From Candidatus Nanoarchaeia archaeon (GTDB lineage Archaea; Nanobdellota; Nanobdellia; Jingweiarchaeales; Jingweiarchaeaceae), in assembly GCA_038874075.1 (NCBI GenBank), contig JAVZDD010000002.1, positions 4,605 to 68,604 on the forward strand: a stretch of DNA of 64,000 bases, in the 5' to 3' direction. Below, piece after piece: positions 3,859 to 43,182 of this stretch. The notes beneath the pieces were generated by a model. That model was not told the DNA's origin. It was given only the letters and a program-made list of their open reading frames with translations, and did not search any database. Every line of letters begins with the position of its first letter. Within the stretch, counting starts at the first letter, position 1. Both the position numbers and the translations under genes were made by a program.

Positions 3859-4068
3859 TTACTCCTCCCAGCCTTCGCTCTCGCCTTCCTCTGGCTCGTA
3901 CTCGTATTCCTCTTCGCCGTATGCTTCTTCTTCGTATGCCAAACAATCTTCGCAGAGACTTCTCTCCGGATCACCACAGTTAGCGCAGAACTTGCTGCCA
4001 CACTCTTTGCACGTGTATACTTCATCAACTTCATTTTCACATATTTCACATGCTGGCATTTTTAACAC
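3859..4068 (-). CDS. Small zinc-ribbon protein with acidic C-terminal tail
   Basis: 69 aa; CxxC...CxxC...CxxC...CxxC (CEICENEV..CKECGSKFCANCG..CEDC) followed by E/Y-rich tail. Confidence 0.6.
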   Translation of the reverse strand: MLKMPACEICENEVDEVYTCKECGSKFCANCGDPERSLCEDCLAYEEEAYGEEEYEYEPEEGESEGWEE

Positions 4069-4753: not shown

Positions 4754-4773
4754 ATAAATTTATCAATTTGAAG

Positions 4774-6156
4774 ATGATTATTTTAATTATGCAAGCAAAG
4801 CAGATATTCTCTTTGAGCTCGATTGTAATAGTAATTTTTTTAGTTGGTTGCATTGGTCAAACAACACAGATGTGCACAAATCCAGATATTTGCAGTGATG
4901 ATAATCGCTGCTGTTCTGGTTACATATGTTGTGATGGTGCATGTGTTAGAGCTGAGACCTGCGCTTGCACAGGAAACATTATTTTGAGCGAACAATTTTT
5001 GAAGAATTACACAGGTACAAATATCTCATCAGGTACAAATGTACAATTCACCATATGCGGACTTAATAAATACTGTGAAAATGAGACAGTCTACATTAAA
5101 GAATCAAATTGCGATGCTCCAGATTATTTAACTTCATTTAAACCAGTTTATAAAAGCTCTTGTAATAATTTCGGTGGTTCGCCTTCTTTTTTCCTTACAT
5201 ATGGTTCGCACACGATTTGTGCATGTATTGACATAAACAAAGATAATAAGTTTGATGGCGGGGAGAGGTCATGCAGAAGTTTCTTGATTTGTCATTCAAA
5301 TCTTTCAGAGACATGCTACTCGGATGCAATGTGCTGTGAGGGTAGATGTATGAATGGCAAATGTTGCTTAACAGAAAATCAAGTGTGTAGGAATAACGAA
5401 GAATGTTGTACGAACTTTTGTTCAAATGGCACATGTAAGGAAATACCAGTAACAACATGCGCTGGTCAGACAAAATTAGATTTACCATCCATTGTTTCTC
5501 CCCAAAGCCCGATTTCTGCAAAAATTTATGGTCTAAACTCACTCTGTGCTGGGCATAAAGTGTATCTTAAAAAACAAAATTGTACTGGCGAGATAATCAT
5601 AAGTACTACACTAGATAGCAACGGAAGTCGTTCATTCCAATTTTCCGCGCCTAGCATGCTCGGTACCCACACATATGCTGCTTGTGTTGATATTACAGGG
5701 AATGAAACATTTGATAAGCCAGAAGAGTACACAACGAAACAGGTTAGGGTATGTTATGGACTTGGGCAAAGATGTGAGAATGATAATGAATGTTGCTGTA
5801 ATATATGTGATTATGTTTGCGGGGCATGCGATGGCGATGTTAACCTATCTTTGAGTGCATACAATGTAACACCCAACGCAACGATCCTTGCAACGATTTC
5901 TGGTTTAAGCAACAGATGCTTGAACAGGACAATTGAACTTAGACAATCAAGTTGTGTGGGTGAATTAATAAAATCATGCAATGTTGAAATGTCTTTCTGT
6001 GAGGGTGATAGATGCACTTATGGTTGCCAATTCTCATTTAATGCACCAGCACAAAACGGAACGTATAGATACTTTGCCTTTTTAGATCTCGATCTAGACG
6101 GTTTCATATGCATAAGTGAAAAAGAGTACGGGTATGCGATTGTCAATGTTATCTAG
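4774..6156 (+). CDS. Cysteine-rich modular secreted/surface protein
   Basis: About 460 aa; N-terminal hydrophobic anchor ending LVGC, about 50 Cys, three about 80-aa repeats (x-GLN-x-C...GxHTYAAC-DI), Cys-rich linkers, many N-x-S/T sequons. Track start 4768 is TTG; ATG at 4774. Confidence 0.6.
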   Translation: MIILIMQAKQIFSLSSIVIVIFLVGCIGQTTQMCTNPDICSDDNRCCSGYICCDGACVRAETCACTGNIILSEQFLKNYTGTNISSGTNVQFTICGLNKYCENETVYIKESNCDAPDYLTSFKPVYKSSCNNFGGSPSFFLTYGSHTICACIDINKDNKFDGGERSCRSFLICHSNLSETCYSDAMCCEGRCMNGKCCLTENQVCRNNEECCTNFCSNGTCKEIPVTTCAGQTKLDLPSIVSPQSPISAKIYGLNSLCAGHKVYLKKQNCTGEIIISTTLDSNGSRSFQFSAPSMLGTHTYAACVDITGNETFDKPEEYTTKQVRVCYGLGQRCENDNECCCNICDYVCGACDGDVNLSLSAYNVTPNATILATISGLSNRCLNRTIELRQSSCVGELIKSCNVEMSFCEGDRCTYGCQFSFNAPAQNGTYRYFAFLDLDLDGFICISEKEYGYAIVNVI

Positions 6157-6574
6157 AACTTAATCTTTTTTGCAATGTTTTTATTTCTTCGTAAGCTTTG
6201 CGTGGCGATGAAAAATTTTTGACTAATCTTTCAAATGGACACTCTTGATCGCCACTTAAAATTCTTGGTACAAGATTTTCATATTCAAAATAAATACTCC
6301 TACTACTTAGCCACTTTTTTGCCTCTTTACTCATAATGGTCGCGAATACTGCATCAACTTTTGTATAGCTGCAAAGCATCGCTACCGCCTTTCCGACGAT
6401 TTTATCCGCCACCGAAGCACCATTCATCTTTTCCCCCAGATCGTCAATCGCTACGAGAAAGCCGCGTATTCCACTCAACCTTGATTTAAATATTATTTGA
6501 TGATTTTTTACAATTATTAAATTAAATCCCCTCTTCTTTAGTTCTTCTCTCGCAATTCTAACATCATCCATCAT
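6149..6574 (-). CDS. Conserved hypothetical protein
   Basis: 141 aa ORF, no confidently recognisable motif; overlaps stop of upstream gene (operon with 6571..7482). Confidence 0.4.
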   Translation of the reverse strand: MMDDVRIAREELKKRGFNLIIVKNHQIIFKSRLSGIRGFLVAIDDLGEKMNGASVADKIVGKAVAMLCSYTKVDAVFATIMSKEAKKWLSSRSIYFEYENLVPRILSGDQECPFERLVKNFSSPRKAYEEIKTLQKRLSSR

Positions 6575-7482
6575 TTTTCTTCTCTTAGCGAATTTATTTC
6601 TGCTCTGAGTTCAATGATCTGCTTTTCATAATCTCGCATTATTTCATTGAATGTTTTCTCCTCCATCTTTCCCTTGAAAAATTCTTTTTGTACCTCATCT
6701 TTTTTTCTTTTTATTTGCTCAATTTTTTGCTCCAATTCCCTTATCACTTCTTCTCTATCCGCCTTCGTTTTCTTAATTCTCTGAGTAATTCTTTTTAAAT
6801 CTTCACTGAAACTTTTAATATTGATTTGTTTTATTTTTTCACCTGATTTGTACAGAAATTTATTTAATAGTACAATTAGAAGTATGAAGAAAATCACTTG
6901 TAACATTATCGTAATCACATTCGATTTTCTCTTTAAATCAATCTGTACATGGAAAGGCACATTTTTTTCCAGATTCTTTGCAAAATCGATCACAATTTCA
7001 TTTTCAATCTTTAACCTGTACACAGCTGGATCAATTCGTTCTAATTCATAATCTTTAGGCAGAAAAATCCTGATTGAAAGATTTGAGACGTCTTCAGTAT
7101 TCAAGAAAACAAACTCAATTGAATTTACCCCATCCTTTTGTTTTACTATACCCATAAAATTTGCTTTTATGTTGTAGTTAATCTTTTCGCCTTGTTGTAT
7201 TGGTTTTGGGAAAAACACAATTATTTTTGAATCATCAACTTCATATCTCATCCTTTCGGATATAAATCCAAGCTTGGTTACTTCCACGTTGCTGAATGTT
7301 AAGTTGTAAAATGTGATTTCTTGCCTGTCAACTGTTCTCTGCGCAATGAACTCAACTAACAAATCAGCCTGCATATTACCATCTGATATATGTCGCAGTT
7401 CTAGAGCAATCCTACTGTCAGCATGAGCAAGATTTACCAAAAGTAGTGCAAATGAAATGAGTACATAATACCTAATTTTCAT
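6571..7482 (-). CDS. Signal-peptide membrane-anchored protein with C-terminal coiled coil
   Basis: 303 aa; N-terminal signal-like MKIRYYVLISFALLLVNLAHA, one TM (VITIMLQVIFFILLIVLL), K/E-rich heptad-like C-terminus. Confidence 0.5.
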   Translation of the reverse strand: MKIRYYVLISFALLLVNLAHADSRIALELRHISDGNMQADLLVEFIAQRTVDRQEITFYNLTFSNVEVTKLGFISERMRYEVDDSKIIVFFPKPIQQGEKINYNIKANFMGIVKQKDGVNSIEFVFLNTEDVSNLSIRIFLPKDYELERIDPAVYRLKIENEIVIDFAKNLEKNVPFHVQIDLKRKSNVITIMLQVIFFILLIVLLNKFLYKSGEKIKQINIKSFSEDLKRITQRIKKTKADREEVIRELEQKIEQIKRKKDEVQKEFFKGKMEEKTFNEIMRDYEKQIIELRAEINSLREEK

Positions 7483-8124: not shown

Positions 8125-8526
8125 ATGAAGTCTCAAGTGGCCATTGAATACATGATATTAATTTCTTTAATTCTACTACTCTTAGTACCTATCTGGATCT
8201 ATCTTATGCTTTCAAGGATACAGCTTCAAGATGATCTTTCAATTTCATACGCCAAAGATGCGGTCAATCGAATAAAAGATGCAGCCGATTTGGTTTACAT
8301 CCAAGGAAGTCCGGCTCGAGTGAAAGTGAATATTTATATTCCAGAAAATGTGCACAGCATAAATTTTACTGATAGGACGATCATCATCAAATTAAGGACA
8401 AGTGCTGGTCTCGTTGACATTCATGCAGAAACATTAGCTAACATTACAGGACAGCTGCCTGTTCAAAGCGGATACTACGAAGTAATTGTTAAATCCGAAG
8501 TGGGTTATGTGAATGTCACGATCTAA
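8125..8526 (+). CDS. Prepilin-like protein (class III signal peptide-like N-terminus)
   Basis: MKS-QVAIEY then about 20 hydrophobic residues; Q at +1 and E at +5 relative to a putative K-S cleavage site; many N-x-S/T sequons. Confidence 0.5.
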   Translation: MKSQVAIEYMILISLILLLLVPIWIYLMLSRIQLQDDLSISYAKDAVNRIKDAADLVYIQGSPARVKVNIYIPENVHSINFTDRTIIIKLRTSAGLVDIHAETLANITGQLPVQSGYYEVIVKSEVGYVNVTI

Positions 8527-8905
8527 GTCTCAAATAATCGCGGAAACGCTTTTTGTATATGCAATCTTATTTGCATTTTCAATGATCATGATAATCTACA
8601 TATTCGATCAAAATACACAAATGTTGGAAGAAAGAAAAAGGGCAGAAGCAAATAGAATTTCTTCAGATATTGTGGATGCAATAAATACAGCTGTGATTGA
8701 GGGTGATGGCTTCTCAATTACCTTCACAACACCACCAGACATATTGGGGACGAACTACACGCTAAACATCGATGATGGGGCATTATTGGTTGAATGGAGC
8801 AATCATACGTTAAGTAAAACAATTCTCACCAAGAATGTGTATGGTACATTAAAAAAAGGCACAAATACTGTGAGAAATGAAAATGGGCAGATTTTTATTG
8901 AATAA
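8513..8905 (+). CDS. Prepilin-like protein (class III signal peptide-like N-terminus)
   Basis: MSRSKS-QIIAETLFVYAILFAF; overlaps upstream gene by 14 nt. Confidence 0.5.
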   Translation: MSRSKSQIIAETLFVYAILFAFSMIMIIYIFDQNTQMLEERKRAEANRISSDIVDAINTAVIEGDGFSITFTTPPDILGTNYTLNIDDGALLVEWSNHTLSKTILTKNVYGTLKKGTNTVRNENGQIFIE

Positions 8906-9410
8906 AAAAGCACAAGTATTATCTGCTGATTTAGTGGTAAGCATTTTCATATTCACAATTATCATCTCTTTGTTTTTTATTTTTTGGAGAAATGTATATA
9001 ACAACCTGACAATGCAGGAAAAGTTTTTAGAATTACAATATTCGGCAATAAGAATCTCAAATATGCTCGTGAAGACAACCGGTTATCCAAGCAATTGGAA
9101 TTCAACCAATGTTGTTCAGATTGGGCTTGCATCAGAGGCAAATGTACTCTCAATTGAAAAGTTAAGAGTTTTCTTGGATATTAATTACGCTGAAATCAAG
9201 AGAATAATGAAAATAAGTGAGGATTTTAGGGTAAGAGTGAAATACAGAAATGGTAGTACGATTTTGGATAATCTTGGCTTGCCATTAGAAAAGGGATTGG
9301 AACCATCTCCAAGCGCCAAGATAATCGTTCCCATAGAAAGACCATGTCTATTAAAATTAGAAAATGTAACTGTAATTTGTATCTTTGAGTTTAAGTTGTG
9401 GTCAACATGA
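8877..9410 (+). CDS. Prepilin-like protein (class III signal peptide-like N-terminus)
   Basis: MKMGRFLLNKKA-QVLSADLVVSIFIFTII; overlaps upstream gene by 29 nt. Confidence 0.45.
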   Translation: MKMGRFLLNKKAQVLSADLVVSIFIFTIIISLFFIFWRNVYNNLTMQEKFLELQYSAIRISNMLVKTTGYPSNWNSTNVVQIGLASEANVLSIEKLRVFLDINYAEIKRIMKISEDFRVRVKYRNGSTILDNLGLPLEKGLEPSPSAKIIVPIERPCLLKLENVTVICIFEFKLWST

Positions 9411-12175
9411 AAAAAGGTTTTGTAATTCCACTTGATATGACAATCGCGATTATCATATTACTATTTACCTCAACCATATTCACATTCTTTCAGTATGGGC
9501 TTGAGACACCGGGAATAATCTATGAGCTTTCATATCAAAGGGCTGAAGATACGCTCACGATCTTGCAAAAAACAAAGATTGCTTATGTAACAGATGATCC
9601 CGTCGTAACACAATACATCAATCAAGGGATGATCACAGAAGAAGACATGAATAAAACGATATTGGACTTGATTGGTACATTTTGGTCCGAGGGAAAGGTT
9701 GATTTGGCCGTCAATTTATCAAAGAGTATTTTTGATTCACTATTACCACCAGAAGTTGGTTACGAAATTGTAATAGGGAACGACACTATTTATAGTCGAC
9801 CAGGTGTATTGGGTAGTATTTTCAGAGTGAGGACAGTTGTCTCTGGTTTCAAAACCGGAGAAGCACCACTAGGTTGCATCGCAAGCGCCTACATAGAAAA
9901 AATTAAAGGAAAACGAACCGCATCTTACTATTACTTTGGTGGTTTTACTGGTCAGGGAAATTTAACCTTTTATATTTATGATATTCCAAGCGATGCAATC
10001 ATAGAAAGCATCTATCTAGAACTCAGCACCGTGGCAAATGCCACTTTATACATAAATGGAAATTTTTGTCAATCATTAAATAAGAAATATCCAAATTACA
10101 CCGTTGAAAATTGGACAATATTTGATCAAAATTGCATCAATAACATCAGCAAGGGAGTGGCAAACCTATTCACCATTAACTTCTCTTCCCCAGTTACGAG
10201 TGCATACATTGGTGGCGGTTACATAAAGATCACGTATGATACTGCACAGATGAATGTTCCTCTGGGCAATGTGATGCAATACAACTTCACAGGAATTTCT
10301 GGTGTTATCAACCTGTATGATTCATTTTATATTCCAGGAAATTTAACATCGATGGAGATGCATTTGGAATTTTTAAGTAACTATTCAACTTTTTTCAATA
10401 TTGGTAACAAAACAATTTTTGAGAATAATGGAAGTAATACTACACAAATCATTGATTTCAATGATTCGTATCTATCACAAATTTTGAATTACAGTGAGAT
10501 AAGCTTGGAAACAATTCCATTGCGCTTCGGTATGAAGGCATTTAACATCACGATTCAACAGAATGCTGATGTCATTTTGATCACAGATTTATCTGGAAGT
10601 ATGGATTGGAGATTAGATAGCGAAAATACAGGAATAGCCAGAAATTGTACTGATCCTTTATTGAATAGTTCAAATACAAAAAGAATAAGCTTAGCAAAAT
10701 GTTTGGACAAGGAATTCGTTGATATCATATTAAATACTTCTGGAAATAGGGTTGGATTGGTTGGATTTTATAGTGACAATTCACCACCATACAAAGGAAG
10801 AACAATCATTCACGATTTATCCGATAATAAGACAAGCTTATACAATGCAATCGACAGCTATTTTATCCAGGGTGGAACATGTATCTGCTGTGGTATAAAC
10901 AGGGCTTATAACATTTTGAGTGCGCAGAGCAATGCATCAAGGAAAAAATTCATCGTTGTAATGTCAGATGGAATACCAACACACCAATGTGGCTCAAGTG
11001 GTACAGATGAGTGTCAAGGGATTAGAGATGGTTCTCCGGCAAATGAGGGTTTGTGGTTAGGTTGGGGGGCCGGATGTTATGGTGGAGGAGACGATTGTAA
11101 TACGACCGATTGCTTGTGTGCGATGCAAAATGCGAATTGGTCTTCATGCAGGTCATACAATAATTTGAATGCGACCGTATATTCAATTGGATTCGGACCT
11201 GTTGCAAGCTGTTGGAGTGCAAATTGGACATTGAGATCAATTGCTGATTGTGGACATGGCAGTTACTATGCAAGCAGCGATGCAGATGAACTCAAACAAA
11301 TTTACAGAAGTATCGCAGAATCGATCTTGAATGCATCTTACACCACACAATTGATAGAGGTAACAAATGTAACAAACACAATATTATATCCATCTTCTTA
11401 CATTAAATTTAATTACACACCCATTGTACCGCAATATGGTTACTCTGAAATATCTATAAAAGGTGATACAAAACCTTTCAGCGGTTGCAATGGAAGTTTT
11501 TTTGTTCCAGGTCAATTACAAATTGATGACGTTCAAGTTACATCTTACTCATTTGATTATTGGACGGATAAAATATTTGTGAATAATAGCATTACAAATG
11601 GTAGTTTGATCAATGTCTTTAATCTTTCAAAGTTTGGTAGTGATTATAAAAAACTTGGTGATCCATATGCGATCAAATTTCCAGCTTACTTCATTGGATC
11701 AAACGAGACTAATTACATTAACATTCTGCTTGCCCTGAGTCCGACAAATCAAAGCACAAATTGTTCAGCTGGTGATAGGGTCATTTACACTGGTAGAATT
11801 AGAACACCAATTATCTACTCAAATGTCCTACCATTTTGCAAAGGAAGCAATGTGAGCGTTTGCTTTGATAAAGATCACGATGGCTATGCAGATGGTTGTT
11901 CATACATTGCAATCGGTAAAAATCTTCCGAATTTCAATGCCACACCAAAAACCGTGGAGGATTTGAATCCAAATGAAAACGCAGTAGATCAAGTTTTCCT
12001 ACAACTTTTAGATGCATTAAACTTTGTTACAATACCAGCGAACACTGGTAGATCAGGAAATTTCACGAATCCGATTGACATAGAACTCGTTTCGGAACTG
12101 AATTTTGATACTGTTGATACAGCAAACGTACCATCTCTTTGGCAACCCGTATCAATTGAGGTGAGAATTTCATGA
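9407..12175 (+). CDS. Large prepilin-like surface protein with von Willebrand factor A domain
   Basis: MKKG-FVIPLD N-terminus plus hydrophobic helix; MIDAS motif DLSGSMD, GGT and VVMSDG motifs (vWA), Cys-rich insert, very high N-x-S/T density. Track start 9398 is GTG; ATG 9407 overlaps upstream stop (ATGA). Confidence 0.65.
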   Translation: MKKGFVIPLDMTIAIIILLFTSTIFTFFQYGLETPGIIYELSYQRAEDTLTILQKTKIAYVTDDPVVTQYINQGMITEEDMNKTILDLIGTFWSEGKVDLAVNLSKSIFDSLLPPEVGYEIVIGNDTIYSRPGVLGSIFRVRTVVSGFKTGEAPLGCIASAYIEKIKGKRTASYYYFGGFTGQGNLTFYIYDIPSDAIIESIYLELSTVANATLYINGNFCQSLNKKYPNYTVENWTIFDQNCINNISKGVANLFTINFSSPVTSAYIGGGYIKITYDTAQMNVPLGNVMQYNFTGISGVINLYDSFYIPGNLTSMEMHLEFLSNYSTFFNIGNKTIFENNGSNTTQIIDFNDSYLSQILNYSEISLETIPLRFGMKAFNITIQQNADVILITDLSGSMDWRLDSENTGIARNCTDPLLNSSNTKRISLAKCLDKEFVDIILNTSGNRVGLVGFYSDNSPPYKGRTIIHDLSDNKTSLYNAIDSYFIQGGTCICCGINRAYNILSAQSNASRKKFIVVMSDGIPTHQCGSSGTDECQGIRDGSPANEGLWLGWGAGCYGGGDDCNTTDCLCAMQNANWSSCRSYNNLNATVYSIGFGPVASCWSANWTLRSIADCGHGSYYASSDADELKQIYRSIAESILNASYTTQLIEVTNVTNTILYPSSYIKFNYTPIVPQYGYSEISIKGDTKPFSGCNGSFFVPGQLQIDDVQVTSYSFDYWTDKIFVNNSITNGSLINVFNLSKFGSDYKKLGDPYAIKFPAYFIGSNETNYINILLALSPTNQSTNCSAGDRVIYTGRIRTPIIYSNVLPFCKGSNVSVCFDKDHDGYADGCSYIAIGKNLPNFNATPKTVEDLNPNENAVDQVFLQLLDALNFVTIPANTGRSGNFTNPIDIELVSELNFDTVDTANVPSLWQPVSIEVRIS

Positions 12176-13407
12176 AAAGAGGCATAAGTTTCAGCATCAT
12201 CACATTCTTGTTTCTGATACCAATACTCACGTTCATAATCACATACTCAGAATCAATGCAATCAATCAGGAGGGAAAGCATAAAAAAGATTCTATCTGAT
12301 CAAAATATCTTCTTTTCTAAAACTTTGCTTAATGACCTAGAGAAAATGATATGGATAACGGGGAAACGAGCGATAATTTCAGCAATACAAAGAGTGATTA
12401 AGTATGGTACACCACTGAACGATTCCATTTCCGTTATAAAAGAGCTGATGCAAAACGGTACGATTTTTGGTGTAAATGAAACCCTAATGCAAAACAACAC
12501 AATCGGTTACTGGATAAACTTAATCCAATTGGAACAAAATGTATCTGCTTTCAATTTTTCAATCGCTTATTCAAATTTAGAGGTTGATTGGGAATCATTT
12601 AATTGCATTTTTAATGTTTCATTCTCAATTAATGTTTCTGACATTTCAAATACAACCAGGTCCACGAGGATTGGAAATATCTCAATTCTTGTTTCAATCG
12701 AAAAGATGGAAGATCCGATTTATCCACTATACACGAATGGATTGTTTAGAAAAAGTATAAAAATTTGTAATTCAACACTTCCCGAGGTTCGTAGTTTGGC
12801 TTTTGGTACAATCGCGAGTAAAAATGTCACAGGTATATCAGTCATTGGCCTCTCATCAAATTTAACTTACATTCAATCAATTCAAAACAAATCAGATAAA
12901 ATACTCGTCACAGATAACCTGACGATCATAGGTTCTGCCTTAATAAATGCATTTAAAGGAGTCGTTGCGGATCATAGCGATTTACCAGCAGGTATTACAG
13001 TACCATATATCATAAACACAACAAATGCAACAACATCCATACCAGACGCACGTTTAATATATTTGGACGAAATCACGAAGAAAGTTTGGGACATTGAAAA
13101 ATTTGAAGATACAATAAATACTGGTTGTTACCATATTTCATTGAATGGTTCAAACATTTTTGGTAGGTTAGAGGGAAAATTGAATTCTACGGGGAATAAA
13201 TCAGGCATTGAAAGTTTCGTTGATGTTAGAAAATTAATTTCAATGGATATACCAGTGAAAGAAAACCAAACACTTATTGATTATCTCTATTTTAGTAACA
13301 ACTCTCATCCAGGATGTAAAGTAAGGGGCATCAATGAAACGTGGTTTAGAATTGATCCCTGGAATGCTGAAAGATACGGAGTAGGAGAGATTTTAGATTG
13401 TAGTTAG
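12172..13407 (+). CDS. Membrane-anchored extracellular protein, last gene of the prepilin-like operon
   Basis: MKRGISFSIITFLFLIPILTFII N-terminus; SD GAGGTGAG upstream; start overlaps upstream stop; many sequons. Confidence 0.5.
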   Translation: MKRGISFSIITFLFLIPILTFIITYSESMQSIRRESIKKILSDQNIFFSKTLLNDLEKMIWITGKRAIISAIQRVIKYGTPLNDSISVIKELMQNGTIFGVNETLMQNNTIGYWINLIQLEQNVSAFNFSIAYSNLEVDWESFNCIFNVSFSINVSDISNTTRSTRIGNISILVSIEKMEDPIYPLYTNGLFRKSIKICNSTLPEVRSLAFGTIASKNVTGISVIGLSSNLTYIQSIQNKSDKILVTDNLTIIGSALINAFKGVVADHSDLPAGITVPYIINTTNATTSIPDARLIYLDEITKKVWDIEKFEDTINTGCYHISLNGSNIFGRLEGKLNSTGNKSGIESFVDVRKLISMDIPVKENQTLIDYLYFSNNSHPGCKVRGINETWFRIDPWNAERYGVGEILDCS

Positions 13408-25050: not shown

Positions 25051-25173
25051 GCGGGGGTAGCGAAGCTAGGTCCAACGCGCAGGACTTAAGTTTAATTACT
25101 TAAGTGATGAGGTCACAATGATATGAAATCCTGTGGCTTAGTGCCCGCGTGGGTTCAAATCCCACCCCCCGCA
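25051..25173 (+). tRNA. tRNA-Leu (anticodon TAA) with about 37-nt intron
   Basis: Acceptor GCGGGGG/CCCCCGC, discriminator A, long variable arm, T-arm GTGGG-TTCAAAT-CCCAC; anticodon stem CAGGA...TCCTG interrupted by about 37 nt (25091-25127 if at canonical 37/38 site). Confidence 0.65.
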
Positions 25174-28204: not shown

Positions 28205-28235
28205 AAGTAAATAATAATTTATAAAAATTTAAATC

Positions 28236-28324
28236 TGCCTGGGGTGGGATTTGAACCCACGATTGCAGCGTATCTTAGCAAAGCTCATGAGCGCTGCGTT
28301 CTAGCCAGACTAAACTACCCAGGC
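28236..28324 (-). tRNA. tRNA-Met/Ile2 (anticodon CAT) with about 14-nt intron
   Basis: Reverse complement: acceptor GCCTGGG/CCCAGGC, anticodon stem CAGCG...CGCTG with loop CTCATG + 14-nt insert, T-arm GTGGG-TTCAAAT-CCCAC, discriminator A. Track ORF 28244..28459(+) is spurious. Confidence 0.65.
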
Positions 28325-28325
28325 A

Positions 28326-31793: not shown

Positions 31794-32360
31794 TTATCCT
31801 ACAGTAATACAATTTATATTTTTAAACAAAATTCTATCAAGATTGTCTTCTTTAAGACCAATTTCAAGGTTTAGAACCTCACCGACTTTTTTATACTCTT
31901 CTGGTATTGCCAGCGTAAAGTTTAATTCTACGAGTTGGTTTGTCTTAAGTAAGTTAATTTTTTTCTCACCATGGGCAAGCAATCTATCTTCTTTGTACAC
32001 GTTAATAAAAATAACTGTATCAACGATATCATAAATTCCATCATTCATAATACTAAGTTTAAAATTATCCTCGGTTGAGTTTGAACACATAAAACCAGTA
32101 AGTGCTATTGAATATTTTTCTCTTAAAATTCCTCTCGATGTTGTGTTACTACATTTGTCTTGTAGGCATAGACCCATACAATAGATATCTGTACCATTCT
32201 CTTTGATGTCGGAGTACTGTACACCAATACATTCACAGATGGTGTCTATAGAACCTGCAACTCTACTCAAATTTCCGCATGGCTTTGGAAACAAGAAGAC
32301 AGCTATTCCCCAAACTATTAGAGAAGCAGCTAGCATATGTATTATCAGGTCAAGTTTCAT
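31794..32360 (-). CDS. Secreted/membrane-anchored cysteine-containing protein
   Basis: 188 aa; N-terminal hydrophobic signal-like helix, several Cys and N-x-S/T sequons. Confidence 0.4.
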   Translation of the reverse strand: MKLDLIIHMLAASLIVWGIAVFLFPKPCGNLSRVAGSIDTICECIGVQYSDIKENGTDIYCMGLCLQDKCSNTTSRGILREKYSIALTGFMCSNSTEDNFKLSIMNDGIYDIVDTVIFINVYKEDRLLAHGEKKINLLKTNQLVELNFTLAIPEEYKKVGEVLNLEIGLKEDNLDRILFKNINCITVG

Positions 32361-42735: not shown

Positions 42736-43182
42736 TTATTCAGAATGTATAGTCCTGTGTGTTTCACATTTATTATTTATACATTTGCACTCAGTTGGCA
42801 AGCAATCAACTAACGGAACACAACTTTTTTGAAGCATATCATAATAAATTTTCATATACCTTGTTGCGTTTACGTTAATATTTACACAAATACCACAGCG
42901 CACATCAATAAGTATGCAATCTTCATCCATTTGGCAATTAAAATCCAATTTCTTGAATTCAATCGATTCTTGCTCCATCAACTCATCACATCCTTCTTGA
43001 CCAACCAAAGATAAATTTTGAGTAAATTCTTCTGTTTCGTTTCCTATGTTTTTGGTGGTTGTACCTATAGCCTGGATGTAGTAGGCACTGACTACAACAA
43101 TTAAAAATAATATTCCGATCATCAAATAAATTTTCTCCATAACATTAACTGGGAGTTGTAAAATATAAAATCTTTTCCTCAA
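42736..43182 (-). CDS. Small secreted/anchored cysteine-rich protein
   Basis: N-terminal hydrophobic helix (true start may be internal MEKIYLMIG), 10 Cys in C-terminal 90 aa. Confidence 0.4.
   Translation of the reverse strand: MRKRFYILQLPVNVMEKIYLMIGILFLIVVVSAYYIQAIGTTTKNIGNETEEFTQNLSLVGQEGCDELMEQESIEFKKLDFNCQMDEDCILIDVRCGICVNINVNATRYMKIYYDMLQKSCVPLVDCLPTECKCINNKCETHRTIHSE

Follow-up and report, generated by a model that had tools for sequence, protein, structure and literature searches.

A gene spanning positions 4774 to 6156 on the + strand (460 codons plus TAG) of a 64,000-nucleotide (nt) stretch of DNA from Candidatus Nanoarchaeia archaeon (contig JAVZDD010000002.1) encodes an exceptionally cysteine-rich protein, which we interpret, with moderate confidence, as a membrane-tethered, disulfide-rigidified surface stalk of a DPANN archaeon, most likely engaged in adhesion to, or contact with, a host cell or a surface, or else acting as an envelope scaffold. 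The whole stretch is referred to here as the window; all coordinates are positions in it, and amino acids (aa) are numbered from the ATG at 4774. Behind a signal-peptide-like N-terminus the chain consists of seven modules in the order K1 - D1 - K2a - K2b - D2 - K3 - D3, in which the D modules are three copies of one domain and the K modules are short, knot-like spacers. An earlier note on this DNA had proposed a disulfide-stabilised extracellular protein built from three repeats and Cys-knot-like linkers; that interpretation was largely right, if incomplete, as the repeat is not specific to this protein and is instead the domain of a widespread family.

The open reading frame (ORF) ends at 6156 and offers three start candidates, TTG at 4768, ATG at 4774 and ATG at 4789, the last of which is the NCBI call. 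Read from 4774, the protein has 48 Cys in 460 aa (10.4%), close to the approximately 50 in 460 counted in the earlier note; the mean Cys content over window ORFs of at least 150 aa is 1.75%, and the protein is the most Cys-rich ORF of the window. An identical sequence is deposited at NCBI (P0001, hypothetical protein OH354_05120, 'Candidatus Parvarchaeota archaeon'), and the identical protein is present on three contigs. A word-seeded homologue search recovered only the protein itself and one orthologue (locus L001, in a metagenome from the Joint Genome Institute (JGI)), and use of a 65-row family alignment as the query added one protein. The orthologue is 66% identical by BLASTP and 64% identical in global alignment. 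Its JGI gene call (P0002, 421 aa) begins at an internal Met, so that the signal peptide is lost; an in-frame ATG at L001:9869 (gene 9869-11266) yields a 465-aa orthologue with the N-terminus MYNSLMLNKKFAFIALSLSTMLLILIFCLGC, a signal peptide that ends in ...LLILIFCLGC. Comparison of the two genes gives non-synonymous and synonymous differences (pN and pS) of 0.23 and 0.82, respectively, the latter saturated. In the orthologue 47 of the 48 Cys are kept, versus 60% identity at non-Cys residues, and all Cys-Cys spacings are retained apart from one additional Cys, C342, in the window protein. A pN far below pS, together with the retained cysteines and the conserved orthologue, shows that this is a genuine gene kept by purifying selection.

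The repeat and its domain family

The three internal repeats with common motifs described earlier are statistically well supported: local alignments of R1/R2, R1/R3 and R2/R3 score 12.9, 6.7 and 15.7 standard deviations above 300 shuffles (z = 6.7-15.7 overall), and no shuffle matched the observed score. The unit is longer than the approximately 80 aa first proposed, at about 100-110 aa, and its copies constitute domains D1 (aa 64-172, 4963..5289, 8 Cys), D2 (aa 228-326, 5455..5751, 4 Cys) and D3 (aa 351-460, 5824..6153, 8 Cys), all on the + strand like the other features of the gene, with D1 and D3 delimited by repeat alignment and profile match. Motifs common to the repeats are GL(N/S)xxC, xV(Y/E)(I/L)(K/R)xxxC and G(T/S)(H/Y)xYxA(C/F)xD(I/L); in a six-row alignment (three repeats each from the protein and its orthologue) CxG...L, GL(N/S)xxC, xVxLKxxxC, F.F.AP, GT(H/Y)xYxAxxD and an invariant E are retained. 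Pfam, NCBIfam and PDB sequences were searched with the complete protein, with its repeats and with profiles of the repeats, and no match was significant; no repeat paralogue was found elsewhere in the window or at L001. The weak library matches to Big_13 (E 0.09), EF-hand_5 (E 0.41) and mitochondrial Hsp70 (E 0.023) were rejected.

When 1.84 billion representative proteins were searched with a profile built from the six repeat copies, 483 proteins matched at E <= 1e-3 and 116 at E <= 1e-10. Family counts are taken over 151 proteins, comprising the matches listed and the window protein. Full-length copies of the domain number 116 and are distributed over 86 of these 151 proteins (window protein and orthologue included), with one to several copies each, and conform to the consensus.CsG.i.L.L.P..v.ps..Vta.aSGLs..C.Gktvyfk..SC.Gt...sC.....g.C...F.APs..G.YtYyACiDKNgDgdf.d.GE..s..L.V. 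The three repeats fit the family profile end to end, with C2, G4, C32, C44, C83, D85 and E conserved, except that D3 has Phe for C83. In the homologues the domain region is devoid of Pfam coverage, with only sub-threshold or borderline matches to GEVED at the DxNxDG..GE loop; other Pfam domains, namely PEGA, MG2, Big_1 and GH18, lie elsewhere in the chains. Many full-copy carriers are Cys-rich themselves (6-12%), and very large envelope proteins with several domains are frequent in the family. Among the 84 full-copy carriers other than the protein and its orthologue, 61 have an N-terminal hydrophobic segment and 24 a C-terminal one. Named members belong to Aenigmarchaeota, Micrarchaeota, 'Thaumarchaeota' and Parcubacteria, and include a JGI 'PGF-pre-PGF domain' protein; nearly all named carriers are DPANN archaea, and a few are CPR/Patescibacteria.

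Taxonomic distribution was also surveyed by scanning GTDB (one genome per species) with the single motif Y[YF]AC[IV]DKN, which biases the result toward typical family members. The scan gave 24 confirmed loci, of which 18 are DPANN-labelled (Aenigmatarchaeota 10, Woesearchaeota 5, and Micrarchaeota, Nanoarchaeia and Pacearchaeota 1 each), 5 are labelled 'uncultured archaeon' and 1 Patescibacteria. As judged from these sequence comparisons, the repeat is a copy of a widespread unannotated domain that is clearly concentrated in DPANN archaea and has some members in the candidate phyla radiation (CPR). The search for homologues in episymbiotic archaea recommended in the earlier note thus finds the domain across DPANN lineages, and the claim that the architecture is unusual for archaea holds for the knot-like spacers and the overall arrangement but not for the repeat. 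Parcubacteria/Patescibacteria (P0010/P0152, L005; loci L002-L025) carry the same Cys-stapled immunoglobulin (Ig)-like domain as DPANN archaea, which hints that surface-protein modules may have been transferred between the two episymbiotic radiations, DPANN and CPR.

Fold of the repeat and its relation to CARDB

AlphaFold2 (AF2) was applied to aa 173-352 (K2a-K2b-D2-K3) with a 55-row alignment, rather than to the full length, because MAFFT put all single-domain homologue fragments on repeat 2; a single-sequence model of the whole protein had a predicted local distance difference test score (pLDDT) of 35 and was useless. The mean pLDDT of the partial model is 88, with values of 96-98 in D2, which is built of seven strands, and of 76-84 in the K modules, declining to 59 at the construct end. 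According to this model D2 is an Ig-like beta-sandwich. Its best compact structural match is the CARDB domain 3idu, and it can be superimposed on a solved CARDB domain. CARDB (PF07705; 3idu is from Pyrococcus furiosus PF1109, crystallised with di-metal ions) is likewise a seven-stranded Ig-like beta-sandwich of about 100 aa, and the two families have in common the E-F strand motif F/L.AP..GtYyY.AC.D, an acidic segment after strand F, and occurrence as tandem copies in surface proteins of archaea and bacteria. The same relationship appears in a second class of matches to the family profile, which consists of very large, Cys-poor proteins that match at profile positions 62-95 only; these proteins have 12-24 Pfam CARDB copies in tandem (one of them is so named), and the match always falls on the CARDB E-F strands (...APSTPGTYYYGACVD...). 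Profile-profile comparison of the family alignment with these CARDB copies by hhalign reaches 94% probability over the E-F strands.

Unlike CARDB, however, the repeat family has conserved cysteines (C2, C32, C44 and C83), an N-terminal CxG..L.L.P motif, and a DKNGDGDF.D.GE loop where CARDB has an ..E.nE.NN tail. The repeat is best described, on the basis of the D2 model, as a divergent, cysteine-stapled relative of CARDB that lies outside the reach of the CARDB model. Over the 116 family copies the cysteines at positions 2 and 32 co-occur with phi 0.70 and those at positions 44 and 83 with phi 0.40, which suggests two conserved disulfides, C2-C32 and C44-C83 (domain numbering), and in D2 the putative pairs C229-C258 and C270-C304.

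Strands F and G are connected in each copy by an acidic loop of the general form D-x-(D/N)-x-(D/N)-(G)-x-F/I-...-E. In D1 the loop is DINKDNKFDGGE (5230..5265), which resembles a DxDxDG/EF-hand calcium-binding loop; in D2 it is DITGNETFDKPEE (5689..5727), the second E of which (aa 318) occupies the sole invariant position in the alignment of the family; and in D3 it is DLDLDGFICISE (6085..6120), an exact DxDxDGxIxxxE. The EF-hand pattern is exact in D3 and partial in D1 and D2, and in the family loop consensus DKNGDGDF.D.GE the D is near-invariant and the E invariant. Calcium loops of the DxDxDG type are found in dockerin and FG-GAP, and another is the N-terminal motif of GEVED (PF20009); the sub-threshold or borderline GEVED matches of the homologues fall exactly on the F-G loop, whose position also corresponds to the region after strand F in CARDB. 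From this resemblance the F-G loop probably binds Ca2+. Identity as an EF-hand was rejected, since the loop lies between beta-strands F and G and not in a helix-loop-helix, and since the EF-hand_5 match (aa 433-449, 10.7 bits) is far below its cut-off of 25.9.

Knot-like spacer modules

The segments that separate the D domains were described earlier as Cys-knot-like linkers, with CCEGRCMNGKCC (aa 187-198) and CRNNEECCTNFCSNGTC (aa 205-221) as examples, and this description is upheld by the Cys framework, by weak profile similarity to inhibitor cystine knot (ICK) toxins, and by predicted secondary structure. The pattern C-x(3-8)-C-x(3-8)-CC-x(0-5)-C-x(1-6)-C matches the protein four times (aa 34-57, 173-197, 198-221 and 327-345/349), while the maximum in 20,000 composition-preserving shuffles is two. 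K1 (CTNPDICSDDNRCCSGYICCDGACVRAETC, aa 34-63, 4873..4962) has 8 Cys in the spacing C-x5-C-x5-CC-x4-CC-x3-C, conforms to the C-C-CC-C-C framework and aligns with the other K modules. K2a (CHSNLSETCYSDAMCCEGRCMNGKC, aa 173-197, 5290..5364) and K2b (CLTENQVCRNNEECCTNFCSNGTC, aa 198-221, 5365..5436) have 6 Cys each; the spacing is C-x7-C-x5-CC-x3-C-x4-C in K2a and C-x6-C-x5-CC-x3-C-x4-C, similar to that of omega-conotoxins, in K2b. K3 (CYGLGQRCENDNECCCNICDYVC, aa 327-349, 5752..5820) has 6 conserved Cys and the non-conserved C342, in the spacing C-x6-C-x5-CC(C)-x2-C-x3-C, with a last loop of 3 residues that is at the edge of the accepted ICK range. The orthologue has the same K-module spacings, and alignment of the eight K modules of the two proteins leaves seven invariant columns, namely the six Cys and the Gly preceding the last Cys.

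When the K-module profile was compared with the PDB, the top 20 matches were almost all ICK or other disulfide-rich toxins (theraphotoxins, atracotoxins and omega-conotoxins), together with Dickkopf; among curated knottin/toxin families in Pfam only the sub-threshold matches Dickkopf_N (21.2 bits, cut-off 25) and Conotoxin_I2 (17.3 bits, cut-off 27) were obtained. The AF2 model gives K2a (pLDDT approximately 76-82), K2b (approximately 82-84) and K3 (80, falling to 59 toward the construct end) the same secondary-structure pattern, in which a bridge of one residue is followed by a 3-10 turn and then by a beta-hairpin at the end. In Cys framework and predicted secondary structure, then, the K modules are knottin-like. 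Their six-Cys framework, whose loop lengths lie inside the ICK range, is common to ICK peptides (omega-conotoxins, spider theraphotoxins) and to the N-terminal Cys-rich domain of Dickkopf, but whereas ICK peptides are free secreted peptides, the K modules are internal spacers of a 460-aa protein that would be located at the archaeal surface. At least one match to the knot pattern is found in 13 of the 151 proteins examined (protein and orthologue included), and this rarity in the wider family suggests that the knot-like spacers are a lineage-specific addition. Knottins were not found in archaea according to the KNOTTIN database paper (PMC5753296), and an older predictor identified no knottin among archaeal PDB chains (PMC4491269); our literature search found no later report of archaeal knottins and no prior description of DPANN Cys-rich surface proteins.

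The N-terminus and evidence for export

Residues 1-26 (MIILIMQAKQIFSLSSIVIVIFLVGC, 4774..4851) begin with MIILIMQAKQ and continue with a 14-residue hydrophobic stretch and then G-C, so that, as stated in the earlier note, the hydrophobic N-terminus ends in L-V-G-C (aa 23-26). This lipobox-like motif has the canonical form [LVI][ASTVI][GAS]C, and the ORF is the only one in the window with L-V-G-C after a hydrophobic stretch. Conserved Cys counts in K1, D1, K2a, K2b, D2, K3 and D3 are 8, 8, 6, 6, 4, 6 and 8, respectively, each of them even, which leaves Cys26 as the single conserved Cys outside the modules. Such a balance is expected if every module closes its own disulfides and one N-terminal Cys is lipid-modified or free, and the surplus Cys26 is an indirect hint of lipidation. 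The 460-aa protein has no C-terminal anchor, and the anchor would be either a putative lipid-modified Cys26 or an uncleaved signal anchor. N-x-S/T sequons number 13, versus 5.9 +/- 2.1 in shuffles, and 13 was reached by 2 of 2,000 shuffles; this enrichment fits an N-glycosylated archaeal surface protein. The signal-like N-terminus, the 13 sequons, the even Cys counts, the retention of 47 of 48 Cys and the Ig-like model of D2 are all consistent with the disulfide-stabilised extracellular protein proposed earlier.

Two further ORFs of the window, of 148 aa (42736-43182, - strand) and 188 aa (31794-32360, - strand), possess a hydrophobic helix at the N-terminus and, in the portion predicted to be external, 8-10 Cys, without homology to the repeat family; they suggest that the organism commonly makes extracellular Cys-rich proteins.

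Proposed architecture and function

According to the stalk model, the protein would be exported and held at the membrane by its N-terminus, through a lipid-modified Cys26 or an uncleaved signal anchor, and the mature chain would form a beads-on-a-string stalk of K and D modules. In D1, D2 and most family members each D copy would be stapled by two disulfides, C2-C32 and C44-C83, whereas in D3, which has Phe at position 83, C44 would have to pair differently. The acidic DxNxDG...E loop of each copy would probably hold Ca2+, and the modules K1 to K3 (23-30 residues) would probably act as rigid, protease-resistant spacers. About 23 disulfides, 13 N-glycosylation sequons and the probable Ca2+ sites would together make a very stable projection. 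We infer from sequence and model the adhesive role, disulfide formation and pairing, knot topology, Ca2+ binding, lipidation and export, and a binding role is suggested by fold and family context. For surface proteins of DPANN archaea, an adhesive role of the CARDB-like/Ig-like modules has been proposed (PMC5498576), and since the organisms depend on host contact, adhesion or host contact is the leading functional guess. The closest described counterparts, the Mia14-type surface proteins of 'ARMAN' DPANN archaea (PMC5498576), are also secreted and strain-specific, have Ig/CARDB-like modules and have been proposed to act in cell-cell contact; in contrast to the present protein they are large, carry fused beta-propeller or PKD domains and lack knot-like spacers, and they have not been described as rich in Cys.

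Several observations weigh against this interpretation or parts of it. With respect to lipidation, the orthologue has C-L-G-C at the lipobox site, which is non-canonical at position -3, and a lipobox-like motif is present in 1 of 84 family members. With respect to the CARDB relationship, the Pfam CARDB model does not reach even E <= 10 against the whole protein or a single one of the six repeat copies, and the hhalign match (94% probability, E 8e-8) between the family alignment and CARDB copies extends over only 21 columns (strands E-F). The K-module matches in the PDB are of marginal significance (E 0.013-3) and are driven mainly by the Cys positions. Domains of the Ig-like and CARDB-like types are known from proteins of many functions, the neighbouring genes show no functional link to the Cys-rich gene, and the synteny is common to one close relative only. 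A more far-reaching version of the stalk model, in which the K modules are genuine knottins, the first from Archaea, with disulfides I-IV, II-V and III-VI and the third bond threaded through the ring, acting as rigid spacers, and in which the D domain is a new Cys-stapled, Ca2+-binding branch of the CARDB superfamily shared by DPANN and CPR, probably horizontally, as part of a cell-contact apparatus, is offered only tentatively.

The main rival is a structural envelope component that has no specific ligand, for example a stalk or spacer associated with the S-layer, in which Ig-like domains and knots would serve only to form a rigid projection that resists proteases and heat. The stiff chain of small, stable modules, in which Pfam and NCBIfam searches find no recognisable ligand-binding or enzymatic domain, would suit such a component, as would the size and multi-domain envelope character of many family members; nonetheless, a lattice-forming S-layer protein would be expected to be larger than 460 aa with one N-terminal anchor, and the CARDB/Ig-like domains of DPANN archaea have been proposed to be adhesive (PMC5498576). 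We regard the structural role as unlikely, though with a real chance of being correct; the observations do not separate it from adhesion. The ICK toxin framework of the K modules and the predominance of such peptides among their PDB profile matches might instead indicate a secreted precursor or carrier of knottin-like peptides (protease inhibitors, channel blockers or antimicrobials) directed against the host or a competitor, with the Ig-like domains as scaffold. This is improbable: the matches have marginal E-values, the chain shows no evident processing sites, the modules are directly fused to each other (at the Cys-Cys junction C197/C198) and to Ig-like domains, and their presence in only 13 of 151 proteins suggests an accessory spacer role.

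Slightly less probable still is a partner of the adjacent VIT1-family transporter that would resemble metallothionein or handle iron, its cysteines coordinating metal instead of forming disulfides. The very high Cys content would be compatible with such a protein, and a co-directional VIT1-family gene ends 15-35 nt upstream of the Cys-rich gene, in an order that is repeated at the orthologous locus; but this synteny is seen between two close relatives only and carries little weight. The signal peptide and sequon enrichment, moreover, point outside the cytoplasm, the Cys count is even in every module, the Cys positions suit intradomain pairs in the confident beta-sandwich model and co-occur pairwise across the family, and His/Cys metal-cluster motifs such as CxxC arrays are absent. 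A spurious ORF or assembly artefact, for which the odd composition alone would speak, is refuted to near certainty by the identical protein on three contigs, the pN of the orthologue with saturated pS, the conserved Cys spacings and the hundreds of domain homologues.

The adhesive stalk that we favour over these rivals bears on the way of life of DPANN archaea and CPR bacteria, which live attached to other cells; of all aspects of this attachment, the surface proteins are understood least. At 460 aa, the protein offers a compact and tractable representative of a domain family with many members in DPANN/CPR and no annotation in Pfam or NCBIfam, and its spacers are candidates for the first archaeal knottin-like modules. 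It is also evidence that such organisms devote resources to extracellular proteins with many disulfides, which raises the question of how oxidative folding is catalysed in archaea with tiny genomes. Should the protein prove to be an adhesin, the domain profile could mark host-contact proteins in metagenomes.

Genomic neighbourhood

The neighbouring genes that were scanned encode a PRC barrel, a Zn ribbon, VIT1, DUF1893 and a helix-turn-helix regulator. The DUF1893/TM1506-family gene (6149-6574, - strand; Pfam E 3.5e-28) is convergent with the Cys-rich gene, and the 8-nt overlap between the two takes in the last codons and the stop of the latter; the DUF1893 gene is missing from the otherwise syntenic L001, where a gene for a 303-aa protein directly adjoins the orthologue. 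This 303-aa protein, which is without a Pfam family, is a conserved neighbour at both loci (6571-7482, - strand, in the window; 11268-12179 in L001) and combines a signal peptide that looks cleavable (…LLVNLAHA/DSR) with a transmembrane helix late in the chain and a K/E-rich C-terminal coiled-coil tail. Upstream, at 3859-4068 (- strand), is a small zinc-ribbon protein with two CxxC pairs, further Cys and a strongly acidic tail (EEEAYGEEEYEYEPEEGESEGWEE), to which a protein of similar size corresponds at the equivalent position in L001.

A few kb from the Cys-rich gene lies a conserved cluster (8125-13407, + strand; L001 12813-18101) that encodes proteins of 133, 130 and 177 aa, a 925-aa VWA-domain protein and a 411-aa protein. 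The three small proteins have a short charged N-terminus followed by a hydrophobic helix (e.g. MKSQVAIEYMILISLILLLLV), like archaeal class-III (pilin-like) signal peptides, and the cluster looks like a type-IV-pilus-like or adhesion-filament operon. Consistent with an archaeal origin, the window also has, besides these pilin-like genes, PRC and HVO_2718-like genes and two apparently intron-containing tRNA genes, one of 123 nt (25051-25173, + strand) called by Rfam and missed by ARAGORN, and one of 91 nt (28235-28325, - strand) reported by ARAGORN as 'tRNA-???' with the 4-base anticodon 'catg'.

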